Below, piece after piece: positions 10,665 to 47,689 of a stretch of 64,000 nt of DNA. The notes under the pieces were generated by a model. It saw nothing but the letters and a program-made list of their open reading frames with translations. It made no database searches and was not told the origin of the DNA. Where the stretch lies: assembly GCF_054482525.1 (NCBI RefSeq), contig NZ_CM137006.1; one strand, 5' to 3'. Each line of letters begins with the position of its first letter. Within the stretch, counting starts at the first letter, position 1. The position numbers were made by a program, and so were the translations under genes.

Positions 10665-12344
10665 TTACAAAGACAGAATCACTTTTGCACCCACCGCCAG
10701 CTGATAGAGGATGGTGGAAATACCACGGGTAACTTCAATGTTTTTCGATTCATATTTCGGCAGAACCATAATCTCATCGCCCGGTTTGAGTGAATCCACA
10801 TCTTCTGCGTTGACGGCTGCACCGTTCTGACGAATGACGATAATTCTGGCGTTACCCGATTTCTGCGTCAGGCCACCACATTTCTCGATGTAATCCTCGG
10901 TGGTCATACCCTTCTGCCAGCTCACCGCGTTCGGGAACAGCACTTCGCCATGAACCATAACCAGCGATGTTTTCTCCGGAATATTGATGACGTCGCCATC
11001 TTCAAGCAGAACAGAATCAATATTGGATTCGTTGAGGATCACTTCACCTTTCGGAACCACGGTGCGTGCTTTCGCCACAAAGCGGCTGATCAGTTGTGCT
11101 TCCTGCATTCGCAGGCTGGCTTCTTCTTTGGTGGATGACTGGGCAGAAAGTGAGGCTTCCTCCAGTTTTTGCAGCGAGAGATTCAGCATCTCTTTCTGAC
11201 GCTGAGCTACTGATGGGCGATAAAGCTGAACCGCGTTCATCTGCGACATGCTGTTCGGGCGGACTTTTTCCAGAACCGCACGCATAGTGGAACCATAAGG
11301 CAGTACCATGGCATGTTCACCGGAGTGCGCGCCTTCAACCCGCACCTGAATGGTGCCGGCATAGCGGTCAGTGCTCACGATTAAGGTATCGCCATTTTGC
11401 AACATACGGCCTGGTGCAGAACTGATCGGATAGTATTCGCTGCGTTTTTGCAGCCCCTGTTTACGCATAATCGTAATGTGAGTCGCGCCAGGCTTAGGGC
11501 GCGCCCAGCTCAACGCTTCCGTTACGGGAATGCTGCTTTCGCGGAACTCAAAGTCGTAGCTGTTAAAGACATCGCCCTGAACGCTGAAAGTATGCTGACG
11601 CGGCCCGACGATGATGGTGTCACCATCGGCGAACTGCGAAAGCCCCAGTTTGCCGTTCAGCAGGAAGTCGTACAGGTTGACGTTGGAGCGCACGCGGTTA
11701 CCGCGCTTGACCACAATATCAACGTAACTTCCGCGCTCTGGATCAACGCCGCCAGCCTTGATCAGATAATTGAGTAACGAATCAGACGTCACACCGCCAT
11801 ACAGACCAGGATTACGCACAAATCCGGTCACGTACACTTTTACTGGCTGCGCCTGTAATAAGGAGGCGTAGACGTTGACGTTGGACTGGTACACTTCTTT
11901 CACTTTGGATGTGACCAGGGCATTTAACTGACTATTACTGACGCCAGCAACTTTCACCGGACCAACGTTCGGCAGGAAAATATTACCTTTGGGATCAATC
12001 TGTAACGCACCATCAAAGGTGAACGCACCCCACAAGCGAACCTGAATGCTATCGCCCGGATTCAGAATATAGTCAGGGTTGAATCCTACCGTCGCACCGC
12101 TATCCGCGCTGGTGCCGTTGAAAAGTTGAGCACCAAACATGCGGCTCATGACCACCGGCGGTGCGGGCGGCGGGGTATTGTCAAAGCCGCTCATGTTTTG
12201 CGTATCCGATTTTTGTCCGCTCAGAATACCGGTAAGCGGCGCTGCTCCTGTCAGGTTTGGGTCAGCGTTAATATCAATGGCCGCGCTGGCCTGCGCAGCC
12301 TGACAGGCGGCAATCAGTAAAATTGATTTCAATAATTTCATCAC
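10665..12344 (-). CDS. kpsD: Capsule polysaccharide export protein KpsD
   Basis: 559 aa with N-terminal signal peptide MMKLLKSILLIAACQAAQASA; Wza/KpsD-like. Confidence 0.9.
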   Translation of the reverse strand: MMKLLKSILLIAACQAAQASAAIDINADPNLTGAAPLTGILSGQKSDTQNMSGFDNTPPPAPPVVMSRMFGAQLFNGTSADSGATVGFNPDYILNPGDSIQVRLWGAFTFDGALQIDPKGNIFLPNVGPVKVAGVSNSQLNALVTSKVKEVYQSNVNVYASLLQAQPVKVYVTGFVRNPGLYGGVTSDSLLNYLIKAGGVDPERGSYVDIVVKRGNRVRSNVNLYDFLLNGKLGLSQFADGDTIIVGPRQHTFSVQGDVFNSYDFEFRESSIPVTEALSWARPKPGATHITIMRKQGLQKRSEYYPISSAPGRMLQNGDTLIVSTDRYAGTIQVRVEGAHSGEHAMVLPYGSTMRAVLEKVRPNSMSQMNAVQLYRPSVAQRQKEMLNLSLQKLEEASLSAQSSTKEEASLRMQEAQLISRFVAKARTVVPKGEVILNESNIDSVLLEDGDVINIPEKTSLVMVHGEVLFPNAVSWQKGMTTEDYIEKCGGLTQKSGNARIIVIRQNGAAVNAEDVDSLKPGDEIMVLPKYESKNIEVTRGISTILYQLAVGAKVILSL

Positions 12345-12364
12345 AAACTCATTCAGCGACAGCG

Positions 12365-13513
12365 TTAATCTCGGTGATCTTCAATAACAGCCAGCAACAG
12401 TTTCAGGGTGCCGAACAGCAGGCAGCACACCAGTAACCAGCAGGCGATCAAATAAGGGATATTTGGAAAAGACGATTCCTGCGGCAACTGTGGCGAACTG
12501 ATCACTGACAGCACCTTGAGCTTACGAGCCGCTTCTACACGGGTCTTTTCAATGGAGGTCAGGGTCAGTTTGTACAGCTCGGTGTTGAACTCTACTTTTG
12601 ATTTGATTTCTTCAAAATCCACCGCCATACGGTTTAGCTTGTCACCCTGCGGCGCTGTGATTTTGCTTTTTTCTTCGTCAATTTGTGCCTGCAATGACTG
12701 AATCGCATTACGCGCACTCACAACTTGCGGGGCGTCCTCACGCAGATACGTCAGCAAGTTCCGCAGGTCCGCTTCCATCTGGATCTTCTGGCCCATCAGC
12801 GTATTCACTAACGTGCTCGCCGCCTGTGCCTGTGCCTGTGGATCCAGAACGTTGTTGTTGTCTTGATAAGAGAGCAATTCCGCTTTGCTGGCGTCCAGAC
12901 GCTGGCGTGCCTTTTCCATCTCCGTTTCTGCAAAGGCAAGCTGGTCACGCGCGATGCGATGTGACATCTCATTGATAAAGCGCTCTGACTCTTTCAGCAC
13001 GGTTTGGTTAAACTTAAGCGCAAATTCCGGGCTAAAGCCCTGCGTCTGAATATTCAGTAATCCGGTTTTATCGTCATACGAGACGTTGATACGGTCCTTG
13101 TAGTACTTCAGGAAGCCTTCTGCGGTTTCATCCTTGCTAAGATGATTAAGAAAATCGAGCCCGCTGTGGCTAAACGCTTCACGAAAATTTAGTTGCTTAT
13201 CCAGCGCCGCCAGCATATCCGGCGAGTTGATGTACTCTTTCAGATACAACGCATCTTCTGCGGAACTGGGGTTAGAGGCACCCAGAAGCAGACCAAAATT
13301 CAGGCTGCCGCTGTTTAAATCATCCGAGCGTTTAATGGCGACTTTCGACTCGCTCATATAGCGAGGCTGGCTGAAGATAGCCAGATAGATCAGCAGCACC
13401 GCCATCGGTGCCAGAATGATGATTTTCGCCAGGTGTTTTTGGATATCTGCCAGTGAGATGGCAGACAGACGAGCACGCATCCAGGATACGGCAGACTTCA
13501 CTTTTATCAACAT
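12365..13513 (-). CDS. kpsE: Capsule polysaccharide export inner-membrane protein KpsE
   Basis: 382 aa; N- and C-terminal hydrophobic segments and coiled-coil middle. Confidence 0.9.
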   Translation of the reverse strand: MLIKVKSAVSWMRARLSAISLADIQKHLAKIIILAPMAVLLIYLAIFSQPRYMSESKVAIKRSDDLNSGSLNFGLLLGASNPSSAEDALYLKEYINSPDMLAALDKQLNFREAFSHSGLDFLNHLSKDETAEGFLKYYKDRINVSYDDKTGLLNIQTQGFSPEFALKFNQTVLKESERFINEMSHRIARDQLAFAETEMEKARQRLDASKAELLSYQDNNNVLDPQAQAQAASTLVNTLMGQKIQMEADLRNLLTYLREDAPQVVSARNAIQSLQAQIDEEKSKITAPQGDKLNRMAVDFEEIKSKVEFNTELYKLTLTSIEKTRVEAARKLKVLSVISSPQLPQESSFPNIPYLIACWLLVCCLLFGTLKLLLAVIEDHRD

Positions 13514-13584
13514 GTAACGATTATCAAAGTTTCAGTGGGGCGCAAACTCAATGAGAGACTAACCTCTCGCACCCCGTTGCTTAA

Positions 13585-14568
13585 TTAGTCGAAAATGCGC
13601 ACAAGGCCAGTGACTTTATTTGCCTTGTTGGTCACCAATAACGTTGAGACGCGGTGCTTTTGCATTTTTTCTTCCGCTTCAATGATCATGGTGTCTTCCG
13701 GTAGCGTCAGCGGTTCACGTGTCATCATCTGCGCAGCCGTGGCGGATGTCAGAGAATCCTCTTTTTCCATAAAGCGACGCAGGTCACCGTCGGTGATAAT
13801 GCCCGCTAGCCCACCTTCTGCGTCTTCTACCATCACCATTCCCTGGCATCCGCTGGTGATACGTTGAATCACGGTTTTAAATGACGCATCCAGCTGTACC
13901 GCAGGAACATCATGCTGCATGACATCAGCAACGCGGGTCAGCAGGCGACGACCTAATGAACCGCCCGGGTGATAGCGCGCAAAATCATTCGGCATAAATT
14001 TGCGTTGGTGGATCATGGCAATCGCCAGCGCATCGCCGATCGCCATCGTCAGCGTGGTAGACGTTGTTGGTGCAAGATTATTCGGGCAGGTTTCATTCGC
14101 CATGTGGAGTTCCAGCACGGCATCAGCATTTTTCGCCAGCGTGGAATTTCCATTATTGGTAATGGCGATAATTCGGTTGCCGAAATTTTTCAGTGAAGGA
14201 ACTAGCTTGAGGATTTCATCCGTTTCACCGCTGGCAGAAATAAGGATCAGAAGATCGTAAGGCGTAATCATGCCCAGATCGCCATGGAAAGCTTCTGCAG
14301 GATGAATAAAGAAACTAGGCGTACCCGTAGAGGCCAGCGTCGCTGACATTTTACGACCGACATGCCCTGATTTACCCATTCCCGAAAGAATAACGTGACC
14401 TTTACAGTTCATTATCAAATTAAGGACACGCTGGTACTGCCCGGAATCCAGTTGTTTAGACAAGTTTTGTAATGCTGCGCCTTGTTCTGCCAGAGTCTGG
14501 CGAACAGAGGTAATTAGATATGGATCGATAGTACTGCTCTGGTCATCAGGTAAATGTCTTTCAGACAT
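13585..14568 (-). CDS. kpsF: Arabinose-5-phosphate isomerase KpsF
   Basis: SIS domain plus CBS pair. Start placed at ATG 14568 (MSERHLPDD), preceded by AAAGGAG, giving 327 aa; the track ORF begins 36 nt upstream at 14604. Confidence 0.85.
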   Translation of the reverse strand: MSERHLPDDQSSTIDPYLITSVRQTLAEQGAALQNLSKQLDSGQYQRVLNLIMNCKGHVILSGMGKSGHVGRKMSATLASTGTPSFFIHPAEAFHGDLGMITPYDLLILISASGETDEILKLVPSLKNFGNRIIAITNNGNSTLAKNADAVLELHMANETCPNNLAPTTSTTLTMAIGDALAIAMIHQRKFMPNDFARYHPGGSLGRRLLTRVADVMQHDVPAVQLDASFKTVIQRITSGCQGMVMVEDAEGGLAGIITDGDLRRFMEKEDSLTSATAAQMMTREPLTLPEDTMIIEAEEKMQKHRVSTLLVTNKANKVTGLVRIFD

Positions 14569-14604
14569 ATCAGCTCCTTTGCACGGAAATAATGCCACAG
14601 TCAC

Positions 14605-17193: not shown

Positions 17194-17215
17194 TGGTGCC
17201 GGACTCGGAATCGAA
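17194..17215 (-). repeat. tRNA-Phe 3'-end-like 22-nt repeat (island att-site remnant)
   Basis: TGGTGCCGGACTCGGAATCGAA is the reverse complement of a tRNA-Phe acceptor/T-arm 3' end with one base missing; no full tRNA present. Confidence 0.5.
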
Positions 17216-17325: not shown

Positions 17326-18168
17326 TCAGGCTGAGAGCACAGAAGGAAAGTACCTGGCTATTATATCGTTAATTCTGTCAATCAGTTCCAGCCTTTTGAA
17401 AGTGATGTGTGCAGATCCCTTCTTAAAGTATTTAATGATGAACATCTCGTCTTCATAGCGCTCTTTACCCTGAACGGACTGGATGTGACCATCCAGACGA
17501 ATAGTGATGTTTTCCCGGTTGTCGGGGATCGGTTTGCCGCTGAACAGATGTAGCATTCTTTCCAGGTCGACGAGTCGGTCAGTCTGTTGCCCGGTGATAA
17601 GATGAAACCCCCACCGGTCCCACCTCACCAGGTTGTTGACGATAATTTTACTGCCAAATTTGCAGGGGCAATTGGTTTTGTAATTCCAGCTCAGTCCCCT
17701 GAAGACGTTGATCACCCCTCGCTCAAACACCTCATCCTTATTCTGGTGTAGTTGTTCAAATGTGCTCAGAATGTTCGCTTCACTGATTTCCGGAAAATTA
17801 TCGTGCTCCAGTGACCGGTACCATGTATCACGGGCCTGTGCATCCATTAAGGAAAGCATCCCTGAACGTTGCATCAGGTCACGCCAGATTTCGCGATCGA
17901 GATTGCGTGTGATAGCTTTCATTGCGGTTTCCGGTTTCTCCATCAGCCAGCAGCCGCAGCGAAAATCCTGTTTCATGGCCCAGTCCGGGGCGGCTTTACC
18001 GCCAATACTTTCTGTCATTGCTGAGATTTCAGCCAGTTGCCGGATAAGTGTGTCGATTTGCAGCAGTGTACTTTTTCGTACAGCCAGAATGTGGCGGATA
18101 CTGGTTGAGCAGATAACGTCCGTATGCCCGGTGACCACTTCCGGATGGGAGATTGTGATGTTTGACAT
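17326..18168 (-). CDS. Conserved island protein, probably DUF4942 family (CP4-44-like module, copy 1)
   Basis: 280 aa; paralog of 45243-46109; occupies the module-terminal position after the YeeW-like genes. Confidence 0.6.
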   Translation of the reverse strand: MSNITISHPEVVTGHTDVICSTSIRHILAVRKSTLLQIDTLIRQLAEISAMTESIGGKAAPDWAMKQDFRCGCWLMEKPETAMKAITRNLDREIWRDLMQRSGMLSLMDAQARDTWYRSLEHDNFPEISEANILSTFEQLHQNKDEVFERGVINVFRGLSWNYKTNCPCKFGSKIIVNNLVRWDRWGFHLITGQQTDRLVDLERMLHLFSGKPIPDNRENITIRLDGHIQSVQGKERYEDEMFIIKYFKKGSAHITFKRLELIDRINDIIARYFPSVLSA

Positions 18169-18461: not shown

Positions 18462-18950
18462 TTATCAGTCGAAAGTGGGCAGGTCCGGCAGACATTCAGC
18501 GCTGGCATCCAGATGAATGAGACTGACGCCATAACGTTGGATGAGTGTGACAAACAGACGACGGAACGTTTTTGACAGCCCCAGGCGTTTAAGCCGCAGA
18601 ACCGGATATGATCACGCATCGGTACGTAACAGATATCCGCTACCTGTGAAATGAATCCATTCTGATTCGCCGAAGTCACTGGTCTGGTGTGACAGTGAGT
18701 ACAACCAGGCGTTGTCCGTTTCCGTGATATGTGCGGTACTGCAGCGTATGCCGGCAAGGGTTGCAAATGGCGGTGGTGTGCAGGTTGACTGTTGGTCGGA
18801 TTCCTCTGCCACACGGAGTGAATAATCGTTTTCAGCGACGTTATTAATCAGTTCAGTGAGATTAACACCATCGACGTCAACGACAATTCGCCCCATGTTC
18901 AGTGCCTGCACATTAATGCTGTCGGCTTCCAGCATCAGGGAAAGTTTCAT
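18462..18950 (-). pseudogene. YeeW-like protein, truncated by a TGA nonsense codon at codon 113 (copy 1)
   Basis: Copy 2 (46403-46894) reads through TGG (W) where copy 1 has TGA; downstream frame in copy 1 still encodes SYPVLRLKRLG... Confidence 0.55.
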
Positions 18951-19321
18951 CGTTTCTCCGGATGCTTACCCAGGGTAATGTTATTTACCGTTCTGTAATT
19001 GTCGCGGGTCATCAGGCCGGTCGCCCTGCGAGCCCGGAGGATATCGATGCTGTTTATTAACTGAGAGCGGGTACAGGCACTGAATTCCGGCTGGTCGGTA
19101 CGCACCAGTGCGTATTTTTCAACAAGAAAGTTCACTGCATCGCACAGTGAAATGCCAGCTTCAATATGCTGCTCAATCACACGTTCATCGGCGAACGGTG
19201 TGTCATTCAGCGTAAGGCCGTAATGCTGGTCCAGCAACCGGGACAGCAGTGTCTGCCAGATGGTGACGGGAGACGGGCAGCGCGATGCCTCCCGTACGTG
19301 TGTGTCGGGTAATGTTTTCAT
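18947..19321 (-). CDS. cbtA: CbtA/YeeV-family toxin
   Basis: 124 aa, [56 protein letters not shown]... Confidence 0.85.
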
Positions 19322-19410
19322 ACTGAAGGTTTTCCTGATATGCAGAGATGAAAAATGGAAAAGTGGCGTGGTGAAAGCACCAGGCCGGAGCAGAAGGTTA
19401 TTCCGGTGGT

Positions 19411-19791
19411 TTACTTTTTCGTTTCGGATGTTGGATAAACAGCCAGATAAACGTAACCACAGCTGCCGAGGGTGTCGGCTTCGCAGGTCAGCCCTTTCGC
19501 ATACAGTGTGACGGTATGCTGATGGCGGGGATTCAGTTCACCGCCGGTGAGCATGAGTTCCAGTTGTTTCATCAGCAGCGGAAAGGCCTGGTCCAGGTGG
19601 TACGCATCCGCGTCGCTGAACAGGCCTCTGATACCGGCGCGGTCGGCAAGGTAATGCAACCGGTTACCCTCCTGCACCAGACGTGCCCCGAAACAGGGCG
19701 TCACGGTGCAGGGTAGCCCCCCACCAGGGGCGGTTGTTGTTGTCGGGATGCGTTGTCCCGGGGAGTGTGTCTGACACGATAAAATCCTCAC
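19411..19791 (-). CDS. cbeA: CbeA/YeeU-family antitoxin, N-terminal frameshift relative to copy 2
   Basis: Residues after ~25 match YeeU ([31 protein letters not shown]...); copy 1 has a 6-C run at 19727-19732 where copy 2 has 5. Confidence 0.7.
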
Positions 19792-42858: not shown

Positions 42859-44121
42859 CTATTTTAATGGATTGTTAATCTTTGCATATTCAAACGGGCT
42901 GATACATTGTTCTCTGTTCGCACCCAGAAAATCTGCCCACCACTGTAGCATCAGTCGACGTTCTTCCAGATGTTCTGCTTTATGGATATATGCAGCACGT
43001 ACACCATTACGCTCCTGATGGCTCATCTGACGTTCCACAGCATCGCGGGACCACAAACCTGATTCAATCAATGCACTGCACGCCATCGCCCGGAATCCAT
43101 GACCACAGACTTCCTGGGTTGTGTCATATCCCATCACCCTCAGGGCTTTATTTACAGTATTTTCACTGATCGGTTTACGCGGGTCATGTGCTCCCGTAAA
43201 GATCAGACCATTTTCACCAGCCCATGTCTGTAGTTCTGTCAGTATGGCTACAGCCTGTTTGCTGAGTGGCACAAGATGTGGTGTTCGCATCTTGGAGCCC
43301 CGGTGTGAGTATTTTACGCCTGGCAGAGGTTCGCGTTCGGCTGGAATAGTCCACATGGCATTGTCAATATCAATTTCAGACCAGCGGGAATATCTGAGTT
43401 CACTGGAACGAATAAAAACCAGTAAATTCAGCATAACTGCCAGTCGGGTGACAGGCTGACCTTTATAACCGTCAATACGCGACAGAAGTTCAGGCAGGCG
43501 TGAAAGATCCAGAGCAGGGCGATGCTGGCGTTTTACCGTGGTCAATGCACCAGCCATATCCAGAGCCGGGTTATATCTGATGATGCCAGACTGTACGGCA
43601 TAACGCATTACAGCAGATATTCTTTGCTGCAGACGACTGGCGATTTCATAAATTTGTTTTGCTTCTGCAGCACGAACAGGGATAAGCAGGTCCGGGGTAT
43701 TGAGTGTTGTGATATCCCGGTTGCCGATAAAGGGGAAAACGTGTGTCTCGAGGCTTTTGATTACTTTATCGCTGTGTGATTGTGCCCATTGTTTATTACT
43801 GGCATGCCAGCGTCGTGCAATATGTTCAAAAGAGAGTTGTAAATCAGGGACTACTTTTTTAGCTCTTTTTTGTTCGCAAGGGTCAATCCCCTCTGAAATC
43901 AGTTTTCGGGCCTCATCCCGTTTTGTACGAGCTTCGGAGAGAGAAACTTCTGGATATACACCAAGTGCCAGAGTCTTCTCCTTACCCAGAATACGATAAC
44001 GGAGACGCCAGTAACGGGAACCATTAGGATGAACCAGCAGGAACATGCCAGCCCCGTCAGTGAGTTTATAAGCCTTGTCAGTGTGCTTTGCAGCCCGGAT
44101 TTTTGCGTCAGTCAGTGCCAT
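42859..44121 (-). CDS. int: P4/CP4-57-type tyrosine integrase
   Basis: 420 aa; MALTDAKIRAAKHTDKAYKLTDGAGMFLLVHPNGSRYWRLRYR N-terminus; C-terminal catalytic region with R...HxxR...Y. Confidence 0.9.
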   Translation of the reverse strand: MALTDAKIRAAKHTDKAYKLTDGAGMFLLVHPNGSRYWRLRYRILGKEKTLALGVYPEVSLSEARTKRDEARKLISEGIDPCEQKRAKKVVPDLQLSFEHIARRWHASNKQWAQSHSDKVIKSLETHVFPFIGNRDITTLNTPDLLIPVRAAEAKQIYEIASRLQQRISAVMRYAVQSGIIRYNPALDMAGALTTVKRQHRPALDLSRLPELLSRIDGYKGQPVTRLAVMLNLLVFIRSSELRYSRWSEIDIDNAMWTIPAEREPLPGVKYSHRGSKMRTPHLVPLSKQAVAILTELQTWAGENGLIFTGAHDPRKPISENTVNKALRVMGYDTTQEVCGHGFRAMACSALIESGLWSRDAVERQMSHQERNGVRAAYIHKAEHLEERRLMLQWWADFLGANREQCISPFEYAKINNPLK

Positions 44122-44286
44122 AGTTCAGCCTTCTGAATGCGTTAAAGAGGGTACAAATTCTGTCGAACTGGGGTATACCCGCAATTATACCCACACAATG
44201 GGGTTGATGTGGGGGGAATCTGGTTGAGTTCGGTAGAATTGATTTGGAGGCAGAACGCTTAAATTGTGGCGTTCTGAAACGAAAAA

Positions 44287-44306
44287 CGGACCTCCGTGGA
44301 GGTCCG
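44287..44306 (-). terminator. Hairpin CGGACCTCC-GTG-GAGGTCCG followed by T-run on the minus strand
   Basis: Perfect 9-bp stem between the tRNA-like repeat and the integrase gene. Confidence 0.4.
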
Positions 44307-44318
44307 TTGATATGAATT

Positions 44319-44340
44319 TGGTGCCCGGACTCGGAATGAA
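44319..44340 (-). repeat. tRNA-Phe 3'-end-like repeat (island att-site remnant)
   Basis: TGGTGCCCGGACTCGGAAT matches the reverse complement of a tRNA-Phe 3' end, then diverges; no full tRNA. Confidence 0.55.
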
Positions 44341-44584
44341 ACTGGTTATATAACCAATTGTTTTGTATCGACTGTTTTATCCTTGTTCTTTTTGAGGCCA
44401 CCAATGAGGCCCCCATGTGCAATTCGAATTCTTTTGACGCTATAATCCCTCTTTCTTGTGGTTTGTTGTAATCATTTTGTCTGGTTCGATATGCTGAATC
44501 GCGGAATCGAAGTGACAACAAAATACAGAGATTTATAAAATACCTGGCTACCTGTGTTAGGGAGCGTTAACGCACAGATTTTGT

Positions 44585-44911
44585 TTATGGCTGCCAGAAA
44601 TGATCTGATGGTTTGTCGTCTGGCTCTGCAAGTACCCTGTTGATATCCCGGGAACCATGAACGATACGTTCGATACGAACTTCAGTATCCAGTACCCTGA
44701 ACAGCAGAAGGTAACGACCATACGAACAACCTCTGATCCCAGCCCCTAACTCGGGTCTTTCTCTGTAGAGTACTGGCGATTCGGCTATCAACAGACATTG
44801 TTGGTAAAGCTCTTCGGTAAAACTGATTGCACGGACAGGATTATCCTGAGCGATCCAGTCACCTATAGCTTCAAGATCGTGTTCTGCTAATGGTGAAACA
44901 GTCAGTTTCAT
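44585..44911 (-). CDS. parE: ParE/RelE-superfamily toxin (type II TA)
   Basis: 108 aa; 4-nt overlap with the upstream antitoxin gene. Confidence 0.75.
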   Translation of the reverse strand: MKLTVSPLAEHDLEAIGDWIAQDNPVRAISFTEELYQQCLLIAESPVLYRERPELGAGIRGCSYGRYLLLFRVLDTEVRIERIVHGSRDINRVLAEPDDKPSDHFWQP

Positions 44912-45171
44912 ATTGGCTGTTCACCTTCTGCCATCTTTTTGTATTTGTGCGTCAGTCGCCCGAATACCTCTTCAGCACTTTTACTTTCACCGCTGTTGAT
45001 GCCTGCGGCCACGGCGCTCTGGAGTGATTCAAGCTTTATCTGCTGTTCCCGTTCTTCCAGAGCACGAAGTCCGGCACGAATGACTTCACTTGTATTGTTG
45101 TACCGACCACTTTCTATTTGTTCGCGGATAAACGTTTCAAAGTAAGGACTGAGGGATACACTGGTAGGCAT
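44908..45171 (-). CDS. parD: ParD-like antitoxin (type II TA)
   Basis: 87 aa; ...SEVIRAGLRALEEREQQ... ParD-type fold signature. Confidence 0.7.
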   Translation of the reverse strand: MPTSVSLSPYFETFIREQIESGRYNNTSEVIRAGLRALEEREQQIKLESLQSAVAAGINSGESKSAEEVFGRLTHKYKKMAEGEQPI

Positions 45172-45242
45172 GGTTATTTTCTCGCCGATTGATTACTATC
45201 AATTAATAATAGTTAATATTCGCGAATTGTAAAATACCTCTT

Positions 45243-46109
45243 TTATGCCTTGCGGCTTTTGTTCACTGTGCTTGCCAGGGCTTCCGGGTAGTGTCTGGCA
45301 ATAATATCATTAAGCCTGTCAACCAGCTCTGGTTTCCTGAACGTGATGTGCGCGGAGCCCTTCTTAAAGTATCTGATGCTGAACATCTCATCTTCATAGT
45401 CCTCTTTACCCTGAACAGACTGGATGTGATCATCCAGATGAATGGTGATGTTTTCCCGGTTGTCGGGGATCGGTTTGCCGCTGAACAGGTGCAGCATTCT
45501 TTCCAGATCGGCAAGTCGATCGGCCTGTTGTCCGGTGATAAGATGAAACCCCCACCGGTCCCACCTCACCAGATTGTTGACGATAATTTTACTGCCAAAT
45601 TTGCAGGGTGAATTGGTTTTGTAATTCCAGCTCAGTCCTCTGAAAACGTTGAGCACCCCTCGCTCAAACACTTCATCTTTGTTCTGGTGCAGTTGTTCAA
45701 ACGTGCTCAGGATATTTGCTTCGCTGATTTCCGGAAAATTATCGTACTCCAGTGACCGGTACCATGTATCACGGGCTTGTGCATCCATTAATGACAGCAT
45801 CCCTGAACGTTGCATCAGATCACGCCAGATTTCGCGGTCAAGGTTGCGGGTGATGGCTTTCATTGCGGTTTCCGGTTTTTCCATCAGCCAGCAACCGCAG
45901 CGAAAATCCTGTTTCATGGCCCAGTCCAGTGCAGTTTTACCTCCGATGCTTTCCGTCAGCACCGAGATTTCTGCCAGTTGCCGGATAAGTGTGTCGATTT
46001 GCAGCAGCGCACTCTTTCGTACAGCCAGAATGTGGCGGATGCTGGTTGAGCCGATAACGTCCGTATGCCCGTTGACCACTTCCGGACGGGGGGCTGTGAT
46101 TTCAGACAT
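45243..46109 (-). CDS. Conserved island protein, probably DUF4942 family (copy 2)
   Basis: 288 aa; paralog of 17326-18168. Confidence 0.6.
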   Translation of the reverse strand: MSEITAPRPEVVNGHTDVIGSTSIRHILAVRKSALLQIDTLIRQLAEISVLTESIGGKTALDWAMKQDFRCGCWLMEKPETAMKAITRNLDREIWRDLMQRSGMLSLMDAQARDTWYRSLEYDNFPEISEANILSTFEQLHQNKDEVFERGVLNVFRGLSWNYKTNSPCKFGSKIIVNNLVRWDRWGFHLITGQQADRLADLERMLHLFSGKPIPDNRENITIHLDDHIQSVQGKEDYEDEMFSIRYFKKGSAHITFRKPELVDRLNDIIARHYPEALASTVNKSRKA

Positions 46110-46402: not shown

Positions 46403-46894
46403 TTACCAGTCGAAAGTGGGCAGGTCCGGCAGACATTCAGCGCTGGCATCCAGATGAATGAGACTGACGCCATAACGTCGGGTAAGTGTGACAACCAGAC
46501 GACGGAACGTTTTTGACAGGCCCAGGCGCTTAAGCCGCAGAACCGGGTATGACCACGCATCGGTACGTAACAGATATCCGCTACCTGTGAAATGAATCCA
46601 TTCTGATTCGCCGGTGCCATTCGTCTGATGTGACAGCGAGTACAGCCAGGCGTTGTCCTTTGCCGTGATATGCGCGGTACTGCAGCGTATGCCGGTAAGG
46701 GCCGCCGCAGATGATGGCGTGCGCTCTGCTGATGTCCGGTCAGATTCATCAACAACACGAAGGGAGTAACCGTTATCGCAGACCACGTTAATCAGTTCAG
46801 CGAGAGTAACACCATCGACGTCAACGACAATGCGCCCCATGTTCAGTGCCTGCACGTTAATGCTGTCGGCTTCCAGCGTCAGGGCCAGTTTCAT
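46403..46894 (-). CDS. yeeW: YeeW-like protein, full length (copy 2)
   Basis: 163 aa; intact counterpart of the truncated copy at 18462-18950. Confidence 0.65.
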   Translation of the reverse strand: MKLALTLEADSINVQALNMGRIVVDVDGVTLAELINVVCDNGYSLRVVDESDRTSAERTPSSAAALTGIRCSTAHITAKDNAWLYSLSHQTNGTGESEWIHFTGSGYLLRTDAWSYPVLRLKRLGLSKTFRRLVVTLTRRYGVSLIHLDASAECLPDLPTFDW

Positions 46895-47268
46895 TGTTTC
46901 GCCCCCGGATGTTTACCCAGGGTAATGTTATTTACCGTTCTGTAATTGTCGCGGGCCATCAGGCCGGTTGCCCGGCGGGCCCGGAGGATATCAATACTGT
47001 TTATTAACTGAGAACGGGTACAGGCGCTGAATCCTGGCTGGTCGGTACGTACCAGTGCGTATTTTTCAACGAGAAAGTTCACCGCATCGCACAGTGAAAT
47101 GCCTGCCTCAATATGCTGCTCAATCACACGTTCATCAGCGAACGGTGTGTCATTCAGTGTGAGGCCGTAATGCTGGTCCAACAGTCGGGTGAGCAGTGTC
47201 TGCCAGATGGTGACGGGAGACGGGCAGCGCGATGCCTCCCGTACGTGTGTGTCAGGTAATGTTTTCAT
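46891..47268 (-). CDS. cbtA: CbtA/YeeV-family toxin (copy 2)
   Basis: Start at MKTLPDTHV (47268); the track ORF extends upstream to 47370. Confidence 0.85.
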   Translation of the reverse strand: MKTLPDTHVREASRCPSPVTIWQTLLTRLLDQHYGLTLNDTPFADERVIEQHIEAGISLCDAVNFLVEKYALVRTDQPGFSACTRSQLINSIDILRARRATGLMARDNYRTVNNITLGKHPGAKQ

Positions 47269-47314: not shown

Positions 47315-47689
47315 TTATGAGGTGGTTGCGGGTGCCAGTGTCGGATAAACAGCCATATAAACGTAACCACAACTGCTGAGGGTATCGGCTTTGCAGGTCA
47401 GCCCTTTTGCATACAGCGTGACGGTATGCTGATGGCGGGGATTCAGTTCACCGCTGGTGAGCATGAGTTCCAGTTGTTTCATCAGCAGCGGAAAGGCCTG
47501 GTCCAGATGGTACGCATCCGCGTCGCTGAACCGGCCTCTGATACCGGCGCGGTCTGCAAGGTAATGCAACCGGTTACCCTCCTGCACCAGACGTGCCCCA
47601 AAACAGGGCGTCACGGTGCAGGGTAGCCCCCACCAGGGGCGGTCGTTGTTATCGTCGGGATGCGTTGTCCCGGGGAGAGTGTCTGACAC
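47315..47689 (-). CDS. cbeA: CbeA/YeeU-family antitoxin (copy 2, intact frame)
   Basis: 124 aa, [42 protein letters not shown]...; GTG start. Confidence 0.8.
   Translation of the reverse strand: MSDTLPGTTHPDDNNDRPWWGLPCTVTPCFGARLVQEGNRLHYLADRAGIRGRFSDADAYHLDQAFPLLMKQLELMLTSGELNPRHQHTVTLYAKGLTCKADTLSSCGYVYMAVYPTLAPATTS

Follow-up and report, generated by a model that had tools for sequence, protein, structure and literature searches.

The window analysed here, a stretch of DNA of 64,000 nucleotides, carries on its minus strand a short bicistronic operon in which a parD antitoxin gene comes first and is followed by a parE toxin gene. The two reading frames share 4 bp (44908-44911, reading ATGA on the minus strand), the start of parE overlapping the stop of parD. 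An overlapping pair of this type had been noted in the first-pass annotation of the sequence, and that description is confirmed, with exact coordinates and family matches above the cutoffs. The genes and the signals around them are as follows.

44908-45171, minus strand: parD antitoxin gene, 87 aa, matching PF03693 and TIGR02606
44585-44911, minus strand: parE toxin gene, 108 aa, matching PF05016
45206-45233, minus strand: sigma-70-like promoter, TTTACA-16-TATTAT, 10/12 in a consensus scan (a pattern match alone)
45194-45218, minus strand: candidate ParD operator, a 25-bp imperfect palindrome, TATTAACTATTA-T-TAATTGATAGTA
44285-44308, minus strand: terminator-like hairpin with a T-run, directly past the tRNA-Phe repeat described below

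ParE matched the Pfam family PF05016 (ParE_toxin) with an E value of 7.9e-18 and 65.3 bits (cutoff 23). ParD matched PF03693 (ParD_antitoxin; E=4.5e-17, 62.7 bits, cutoff 21) and TIGR02606 (E=5.7e-28, 96.8 bits, cutoff 46), and is a ParD of the CC2985 type. The Pfam and NCBIfam matches of both proteins are far beyond chance and above the curated cutoffs. The N-terminus of ParD is of the ribbon-helix-helix type, and the C-terminal segment SAEEVFGRLxxKY, which is conserved, probably binds the toxin. By every computable feature the pair is a bona fide ParDE type II toxin-antitoxin. It is already annotated automatically in RefSeq (WP_000779483.1 and ParD-family proteins), where the toxin is named 'RelE/ParE family'. 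Another open reading frame of 137 aa on the minus strand (44108-44521) runs across the repeat and the terminator and was taken as spurious.

Toxin branch and control region

PF05016 covers the entire RelE/ParE superfamily, and the branch to which the toxin belongs was therefore checked by sequence, profile and fold. When ParE was used as a single query against all PDB chains, up to E=10, eight sequences were matched, all of them ParE toxins. They include 6x0a (2.8e-13), PrpT (7ycs), Caulobacter ParE1 (3kxe) and 5ceg, as well as E. coli O157 ParE2 (5cw7), V. cholerae ParE2 (7r5a) and M. tuberculosis ParE1 (8c24). A profile built from 12 ParE orthologs gave significant PDB matches to ParE toxins alone. 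RelE, YoeB, HigB and YafQ were not matched in the PDB by the single sequence or by the profile, up to E=10. The AlphaFold2 model of ParE had a mean pLDDT of 79; residues 1-95 were modelled confidently and the tail (96-107) was predicted to be disordered. With this model as the Foldseek query, ranks 1-22 were all occupied by ParE or ParE-like chains, with TM values of 0.71-0.89, and RelE, YoeB and YafQ came below them, the first RelE with a TMq of 0.59. PrpT (7ycs) and PfiT (9w3a) are among the ParE-like chains in these top ranks, the latter being described as a member of the ParE/RelE superfamily. The best solved relatives of ParD are V. cholerae ParD2 (7b22), Caulobacter ParD1 (3kxe) and M. 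tuberculosis ParD1 (8c24), and the ParD relatives found are cognate partners of ParE toxins.

That the toxin is instead a RelE-type ribosome-dependent mRNA interferase, and not a gyrase poison, seems very unlikely. The ParE and RelE groups have a common fold, the Pfam family and the RefSeq name span both of them, and the toxin gives a sub-threshold match to TIGR02385 (RelE_StbE; 24.3 bits, cutoff 27.9). However, neither PDB search returned a RelE, YoeB, HigB or YafQ chain, 22 ParE or ParE-like chains (TMt 0.71-0.89) outrank the first RelE, and the partner of the toxin is a ParD of the CC2985 type. The toxin was assigned to the ParE branch because sequence, profile and predicted fold all group it with solved ParE toxins, and on the same three lines of comparison the RelE-type reading was rejected.

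The spacer of 71 bp between parD and the DUF4942 gene upstream of it contains the promoter-like site. The candidate operator overlaps the -10 element and ends 22 nt upstream of the parD ATG. When the 120 nt upstream of parD were aligned for 15 loci with otherwise unrelated flanks, a conserved block was seen which ends about 20 nt before the ATG. Its consensus, TACTAACAGTTA-N-TAACTGATAGTA, is a palindrome that is 11/12 symmetric in 10 orthologous loci and lies at the same distance from the ATG, the central base of the 25 bp being free to vary among loci. The E. coli copy is less symmetric than those of the orthologs (9/12 compared to 11/12). The shape of the palindrome is as would be expected for the operator of a ribbon-helix-helix antitoxin, and ParD is predicted to bind there. 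Because the promoter-like site and the palindrome are kept across genera although the loci have unrelated flanks, it seems that the cassette brings its own promoter and operator with it. No canonical terminator was found directly after parE, the hairpin at 44285-44308 being the only terminator-like signal downstream of the gene. An Rfam scan of 44000-45400, which covers both the spacer and the conserved 169-bp island end described below, gave no match at E<=1.

The end of the island and its tRNA-Phe repeat

The window, which is E. coli DNA, holds two tandem pheV islands, here called A and B, both of which use the tRNA-Phe site. The features that define their shared junction, and the genes next to parDE, are the following.

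44319-44337, plus strand: direct repeat, in reverse complement the last 19 nt at the 3' end of tRNA-Phe, a unique exact match in the window
17194-17215, plus strand: tRNA-Phe repeat at the distal end of island A, in which 1 nt is deleted
42859-44121, minus strand: P4-type tyrosine integrase of island A, intact, 420 aa (PF13356, PF22022, PF00589)
44341-44509, no strand: conserved non-coding island end, common to parDE-type and AbiE-type islands
45243-46109, minus strand: DUF4942 gene, with which the conserved backbone of island B ends (PF13708 at 2e-69; RefSeq of identical DNA)
46891-47268, minus strand: CbtA gene (RefSeq of 99.98%-identical DNA; reading frame intact)
47315-47689, minus strand: CbeA gene (RefSeq of 99.98%-identical DNA; reading frame intact)

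Strain 746 has an annotated tRNA-Phe gene (pheV, with yqgA and speC as neighbours) whose 3' end is matched without a difference by the 19-mer at 44319-44337; 0 copies of this 19-mer are expected in shuffles of the window. The DNA of this strain is 99.98% identical to positions 37337-64000 of the window. A tRNA scan of the window found no tRNA gene: the repeat comprises only 19 nt of the tRNA, and the complete pheV gene is outside the window. At this repeat the two islands meet, island B with its distal end (attR) and island A with its proximal end. Island A extends from the repeat at 17194-17215 to the P4-type integrase at 42859-44121, and island B extends from 44340 to beyond the end of the window. 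In strain 746 island B ends about 62 kb away, with an intact integrase and a tRNA-Phe gene at this far end. The conserved stretch at 44341-44509 is possibly an attP arm.

The parDE genes are the last cargo of island B, a pathogenicity island, and lie inside its distal repeat, with 244-247 bp between the parE stop codon and the repeat. Directly before them comes the conserved module RadC-DUF987-CbeA-CbtA-DUF5983-DUF957-DUF4942, of which the DUF4942 gene is directly upstream of parD. The first-pass annotation had placed the pair 250 bp from an att-like repeat, just inside an island boundary and beside its 'module 2'; the distance agrees closely, the boundary can now be named as the 3' end of tRNA-Phe, and the neighbouring module is the one containing DUF4942, CbtA and CbeA. 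Its further statement that parDE is a second toxin-antitoxin in the island besides CbtA/CbeA also holds, the cbtA and cbeA reading frames being intact in the same island.

In Yokenella regensburgei the module and parDE are arranged as in the window, and the repeat follows 228 bp after parE. Beyond it there are ordinary chromosomal genes and no integrase. Because the chromosome resumes after the repeat in Yokenella, the repeat is a true island end. Island A has a DUF4942 gene of its own (17326-18168), which lies 110 bp from the repeat of that island with no toxin-antitoxin in between. Intact integrases and a gene for an AlpA-like/HTH regulator are present, and island B has the structure of a large, decayed mosaic in which IS elements and pseudogenes are combined.

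Distribution, exchange and decay

The parDE pair was found in 472 of 5426 complete E. coli genomes (8.7%), at 505 places. All of these places (505/505) are chromosomal, and no copies were found on E. coli plasmids. In 464 of the 472 genomes the pair is at least 99% identical to the copy in the window, every listed copy is annotated as intact, and the junction is the same as in the window in 470 genomes. The DUF4942 gene is far more common, with 7105 places in 3824 E. coli genomes, 505 of which (~7%) have parDE beside it. The absence of parDE from ~93% of the sister islands, including island A and an otherwise equivalent pheU island of strain N25, means that parDE is optional cargo with no core island function and that islands of this kind persist without it. 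This optional presence argues against a core maintenance function in DUF4942-ended islands.

Alignments with E. coli ATCC 25922 and JJ2434 delimit the segment that is exchanged, since homology stops at ~44510 and resumes at ~45290, inside the 3' end of the DUF4942 gene.

44510-45290 (approximate limits), no strand: exchangeable cargo slot, comprising parDE with its promoter and a replacement for the last ~15 codons of DUF4942

In ATCC 25922 and JJ2434 the slot contains a DUF6088/AbiEi-like gene and an AbiEii nucleotidyltransferase gene. The adjoining 169 bp (44341-44509) recur, at about 90% identity, in some 635 other E. coli genomes without parDE, and AbiEi/AbiEii occupy the homologous slot in about 635 genomes. 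The region downstream of DUF4942 was also surveyed in eight sampled islands. Two carried parDE (VR50, and S19-141 at pheU next to cadC), one carried a gene for an EAL-domain protein (SCU-122), and in five the slot was empty (three islands at tRNA-Ser, one on the selC side and N25 at pheU). The pair is thus not a regular part of this family of elements, being absent from six of the eight sampled islands as well as from island A. S19-141 and N25, both at pheU, have identical outside flanks and repeats and differ in the type of island end. The site is a variable cargo slot which is enriched in toxin-antitoxins and not reserved for them; the idea of a slot reserved for toxin-antitoxin modules was weakened by the EAL-domain gene of SCU-122 and by the many empty islands.

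[quoted passage not shown] Its position and a neighbouring IS110-family fragment suggest that it is the same locus as the AbiE found in the slot. In the PAI-pheV of CFT073 the two genes are thus probably in the homologous slot, between DUF4942 and the conserved 169-bp end with the tRNA-Phe repeat. Like parDE they are a two-gene toxin-antitoxin in the same orientation, but they form an unrelated type IV system, and the toxin gene is frameshifted in ATCC 25922 and JJ2434.

Outside E. coli, a scan of one genome per species revealed orthologous pairs in more than 11 genera of Enterobacterales, with toxin identities of 69-89%. The genera include Yokenella, Tenebrionibacter, Erwinia, Prodigiosinella, Cedecea, Pantoea, Izhakiella, Photorhabdus and Pluralibacter, together with another Enterobacteriaceae isolate. 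In all intact ortholog pairs parD precedes parE, with an overlap of 1 or 4 bp (11 orthologs). Only the Yokenella ortholog has the same island context as the window. In other genera with enough flanking sequence the cassette, which is mobile, is found beside a tyrosine recombinase, a primase, SymE toxins, AbiEi/AbiEii, Fic or T6SS PAAR/Hcp genes, and relatives at 70-82% are carried by a 221-kb Salmonella plasmid and by Pantoea megaplasmids. The idea that parDE travels with the island backbone was rejected outside E. coli and Yokenella, the contexts elsewhere being unrelated. A collection of 50,697 phage records held a single distant homolog, in a Ralstonia phage, and thus the pair is not phage cargo.

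Pairwise dN/dS values against the E. coli genes were 0.04-0.12 for parD and 0.06-0.12 for parE, in comparisons in which synonymous sites are close to saturation, and they indicate that both genes are under purifying selection. The ParE of the window has kept all 59 invariant positions, and both reading frames of the pair are full length. Half-decayed copies, with parE broken and parD intact, were seen in four lineages and the reverse was never seen. The parE gene has a nonsense codon at position 11 in Pluralibacter, is disrupted after about residue 64 in Pantoea agglomerans and after residue 26 in Photorhabdus noenieputensis, and has been lost in E. coli STE15, where parD is kept. Such toxin-first decay would be the pattern expected of an active toxin and is an indirect sign of activity. 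It is extremely unlikely that the pair in the window is a non-functional remnant, a toxin-antitoxin by annotation that is no longer expressed or active. The island around it is heavily decayed, and both the operator symmetry and the parD Shine-Dalgarno sequence of the E. coli copy are weaker than those of the orthologs, but a promoter-like site is present, the genes are complete with 59 of the 59 invariant ParE positions, and the sequence is near-identical in 464 genomes.

Possible role at the island end

We consider it somewhat probable that parDE is an autoregulated, gyrase-poisoning addiction module which penalises the loss of island B. In such a module one promoter, overlapped by the 25-bp palindrome, would serve parD and, after it, parE, whose translation is expected to be coupled to that of parD. 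Dimers of ParD would sit on the palindrome by means of their ribbon-helix-helix N-termini and so repress the operon, and the C-terminal segment of ParD would wrap around ParE and neutralise it. If the island segment were lost, whether it was excised at the tRNA-Phe repeats or deleted, ParD, which is expected to be labile, would decay, and the stable ParE left over would poison DNA gyrase, so that the segregant would be killed or arrested. The net effect would be a bias against the loss of island B or of A and B together, with no protection against the loss of A alone: as there are three copies of the repeat, integrase-mediated loss of B or of A and B would remove parDE, and loss of A alone would not.

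The addiction reading is supported by the family identity of both proteins, the overlapping genes, the low dN/dS values, the cassette's own control region, the toxin-first decay and the position inside the repeat, all described above, and by the intact integrase and the tRNA-Phe gene at the far end of the island in strain 746. Gyrase is the presumed target by family membership of ParE. Most ParE toxins are reported to be gyrase inhibitors, with reported exceptions such as ParE2 of E. coli O157 (PMC8706911). The precedent that makes stabilisation of the island plausible is ParESO/CopASO, found on the CP4So element of Shewanella oneidensis. According to PMC8706911 (citing Yao et al. 2018), it is a ParE-family toxin-antitoxin that maintains the element after its excision. 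This system resembles the window pair in having a ParE-family toxin on a CP4-type integrative element, and it is the best functional analogue of the stabilisation hypothesis. It differs in its antitoxin, CopA_SO, which has another name and belongs to another family, and in its operator, which consists of GTANTAC repeats; no sequence match to it was obtained in the PDB searches up to E=10. The absence of parDE from about 93% of the sister islands, the palindrome of the E. coli copy, with its symmetry of only 9/12, and the decayed mosaic structure of the island count against the addiction reading, as does the reported connection of AbiE, which fills the slot in other strains, with phage susceptibility and not with stability (PMC12488582).

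It is also possible, though unlikely, that the cassette is anti-phage cargo acting by abortive infection. ParE would then be freed when a phage stops host transcription or degrades ParD, and the slot would be a place where defence modules gather. Phage defence is a real rival to stabilisation because the AbiE occupant of the homologous slot, present between the same flanks in about 635 genomes, has been reported to change phage susceptibility in CFT073 (PMC12488582). In Photorhabdus namnaonensis AbiEi/AbiEii are directly upstream of the orthologous parDE, and other orthologs lie among SymE, Fic and T6SS accessory genes. On the other hand, PADLOC-DB contained no match at E<=0.01 for ParE or ParD, nor for DUF4942, our literature search found no report of ParDE as a phage-defence system, and the phage records gave only the one distant homolog. 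The slot is moreover empty in other islands or holds an EAL-domain protein that is not a defence protein. A more specific version of this idea, which we regard as doubtful, is that the stretch from DUF4942 to the repeat in pheV and pheU islands is a dedicated exchange slot, in which conflict modules (ParDE, AbiEi/AbiEii) are swapped by recombination between the conserved flanks, and that ParDE serves chiefly as phage defence or as a lock on adjacent virulence or capsule DNA and not for generic addiction. If this were true, it would be an arrangement like that of the P4 hotspots for CP4-type islands, of which no description was found in the searchable papers.

Quite unlikely, too, is a purely selfish mobile toxin-antitoxin which has settled at a permissive, non-essential site and is kept since it is hard to delete, with no benefit to island or host. 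The occurrence in unrelated contexts (recombinase, primase, SymE, the 221-kb Salmonella plasmid and the Pantoea megaplasmids) of a cassette of two genes that carries a promoter and palindrome of its own, an island context common to Yokenella only, toxin-first decay in several lineages and presence in just 8.7% of the E. coli genomes would all agree with it. Against it, 464 of the 472 E. coli carriers have a copy at least 99% identical to that of the window, all listed copies are annotated as intact, and the position at the end of the island is kept across two genera at a toxin identity of 89%. This explanation also overlaps with addiction, because addiction stabilises linked DNA as a by-product.

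No paper on a chromosomal E. coli ParDE of this kind was found in the literature, and reviews list E. coli ParDE as a plasmid locus. The pair described here is an uncharacterised ortholog group of the well-known ParDE type, and in E. coli it is chromosomal and restricted to islands. The added value is modest and consists of the exchangeable-slot context and of a natural presence/absence series, in which parDE, AbiE, an EAL protein or nothing is found at identical junctions. The window itself holds two sister islands side by side, one with parDE and one without. The series offers a clean comparison between phage defence and the stabilisation of capsule, adhesin and resistance islands by a toxin-antitoxin at the island end. 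It also ties the capsule-associated AbiE locus of CFT073 to the exchangeable slot and not to the capsule cluster as such.

The archetype of the family is the ParDE of plasmid RK2, which the window pair resembles in family, gene order and addiction logic (Jiang et al. 2002, as cited in PMC6521040 and PMC8706911). RK2 ParDE differs in being plasmid-borne and is likened here by description alone, no RK2 structure being among the PDB matches. The closest solved toxin is that of Mesorhizobium opportunistum ParDE (6x0a, 5ceg), with 39% identity (E=2.8e-13), TM values of 0.88-0.89 and an rmsd of 2.2 A. ParD and ParE are paired there as in the window, but the M. opportunistum pair is from an alphaproteobacterial chromosome or plasmid, its antitoxin similarity is weak (E=1e-3) and it lacks the island-end context. 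The closest solved antitoxins belong to Caulobacter ParD1-ParE1 (3kxe), V. cholerae ParD2-ParE2 (7b22/7r5a) and M. tuberculosis ParD1-ParE1 (8c24), with E values of 5e-11 to 2e-9. These pairs share the CC2985-type ribbon-helix-helix N-terminus of ParD and a toxin fold with TM values of 0.85-0.86 to the window ParE, whereas the identity of their toxins is only 20-30% and none of them is at the end of a tRNA island. The V. cholerae copies are in a superintegron, and those of Caulobacter and M. tuberculosis are chromosomal. A precedent for toxicity among enterobacterial pairs is a chromosomal ParE/RHH pair of Erwinia amylovora, which was shown to be toxic in E. coli, with its antitoxin neutralising the effect (PMC6521040). 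The likeness of this tested pair to that of the window is by description alone; Erwinia species carry orthologs of the window pair at 74-77% identity.

Toxin loss in parDE and AbiE copies

Decay of parDE was found to begin with the toxin: in every decaying copy, namely those of Pluralibacter, Pantoea agglomerans, Photorhabdus noenieputensis and E. coli STE15, parE had been lost and parD was intact. The parE lesions are listed by comparison locus (L) or database match (H).

Lesions of parE in decaying parDE copies
L018, 1035-1067: Pluralibacter, nonsense codon at position 11
L019, ~6190: Pantoea agglomerans, truncation
L022, ~6080: Photorhabdus noenieputensis, truncation
H82: E. coli STE15, deletion

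ParD was also the sole annotated partner in the Pantoea plasmid matches H135-H137. In E. coli ATCC 25922 and JJ2434, where the slot, i.e. the exchangeable cargo stretch between DUF4942 and the island end, holds an AbiE module, the toxin gene AbiEii is annotated as frameshifted (L005 4185-5119 and L006 4185-5118, respectively) and the DUF6088 antitoxin-like gene as intact. The AbiE occupant of the slot is thereby another case of toxin-first decay, as in the decaying parDE copies.

Cargo types in other genomes

The slot is not restricted to toxin-antitoxin modules. At the pheV island end of E. coli SCU-122, DUF4942 is followed by a 511-aa EAL-domain gene (L039 1361-2896), c-di-GMP phosphodiesterase-like, which is a third, non-TA type of cargo. 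The island of Yokenella regensburgei is collinear except that DUF957 and DUF4942 are separated by an inserted, oppositely oriented ORF of 323 aa (L007 3378-4349), judged from its sequence to encode a putative glycosyltransferase-like protein. In Photorhabdus namnaonensis an AbiEi_3/AbiEii pair lies immediately upstream of the orthologous parDE (L015 2078-3778); the two kinds of module found as alternatives in the slot of E. coli here stand side by side.

The conserved island end

The non-coding island end (44341-44509, 169 bp) shows ~90% conservation when islands of the parDE type are compared with those of the AbiE type. A 10-nt inverted repeat at 44340-44359 abuts the tRNA-Phe core, and the island end, for which Rfam gave no match, probably serves as an attP arm or as a binding region for the integrase. 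One promoter-like site sits exactly on the slot boundary and is directed into parE on the antisense strand:

44512-44541, + strand: GTGACA-18-TAAAAT, 10/12 consensus

It may be a chance match, since the promoter scan gave no more sites than were found in shuffles.

Tandem islands and the capsule cluster

A second repeat and a second DUF4942 gene indicate that the window contains two tandem sister islands, of which only the upstream one carries parDE.

Second set of island features (island A)
17194-17215: tRNA-Phe 3'-end repeat, 22 nt, 1-nt deletion
17326-18168: DUF4942 gene, 110 bp from the repeat

Beyond island A lies a group 2 capsule (kps) cluster (1-14600), set apart from parDE by IS4, an IS110 fragment and one whole extra island. 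In ATCC 25922 and JJ2434 the same IS110 fragment connects kpsF to the end of the AbiE-type island.

Gene states in island A (~18465-19777) were read from the annotation of strain AH50, which is 99.7% identical to the window over 14000-38000. According to this annotation the CbtA toxin gene is intact, a frameshift affects its YeeU/CbeA antitoxin and DUF5983 is interrupted by an internal stop; it is odd that CbtA should be orphaned beside a broken antitoxin.
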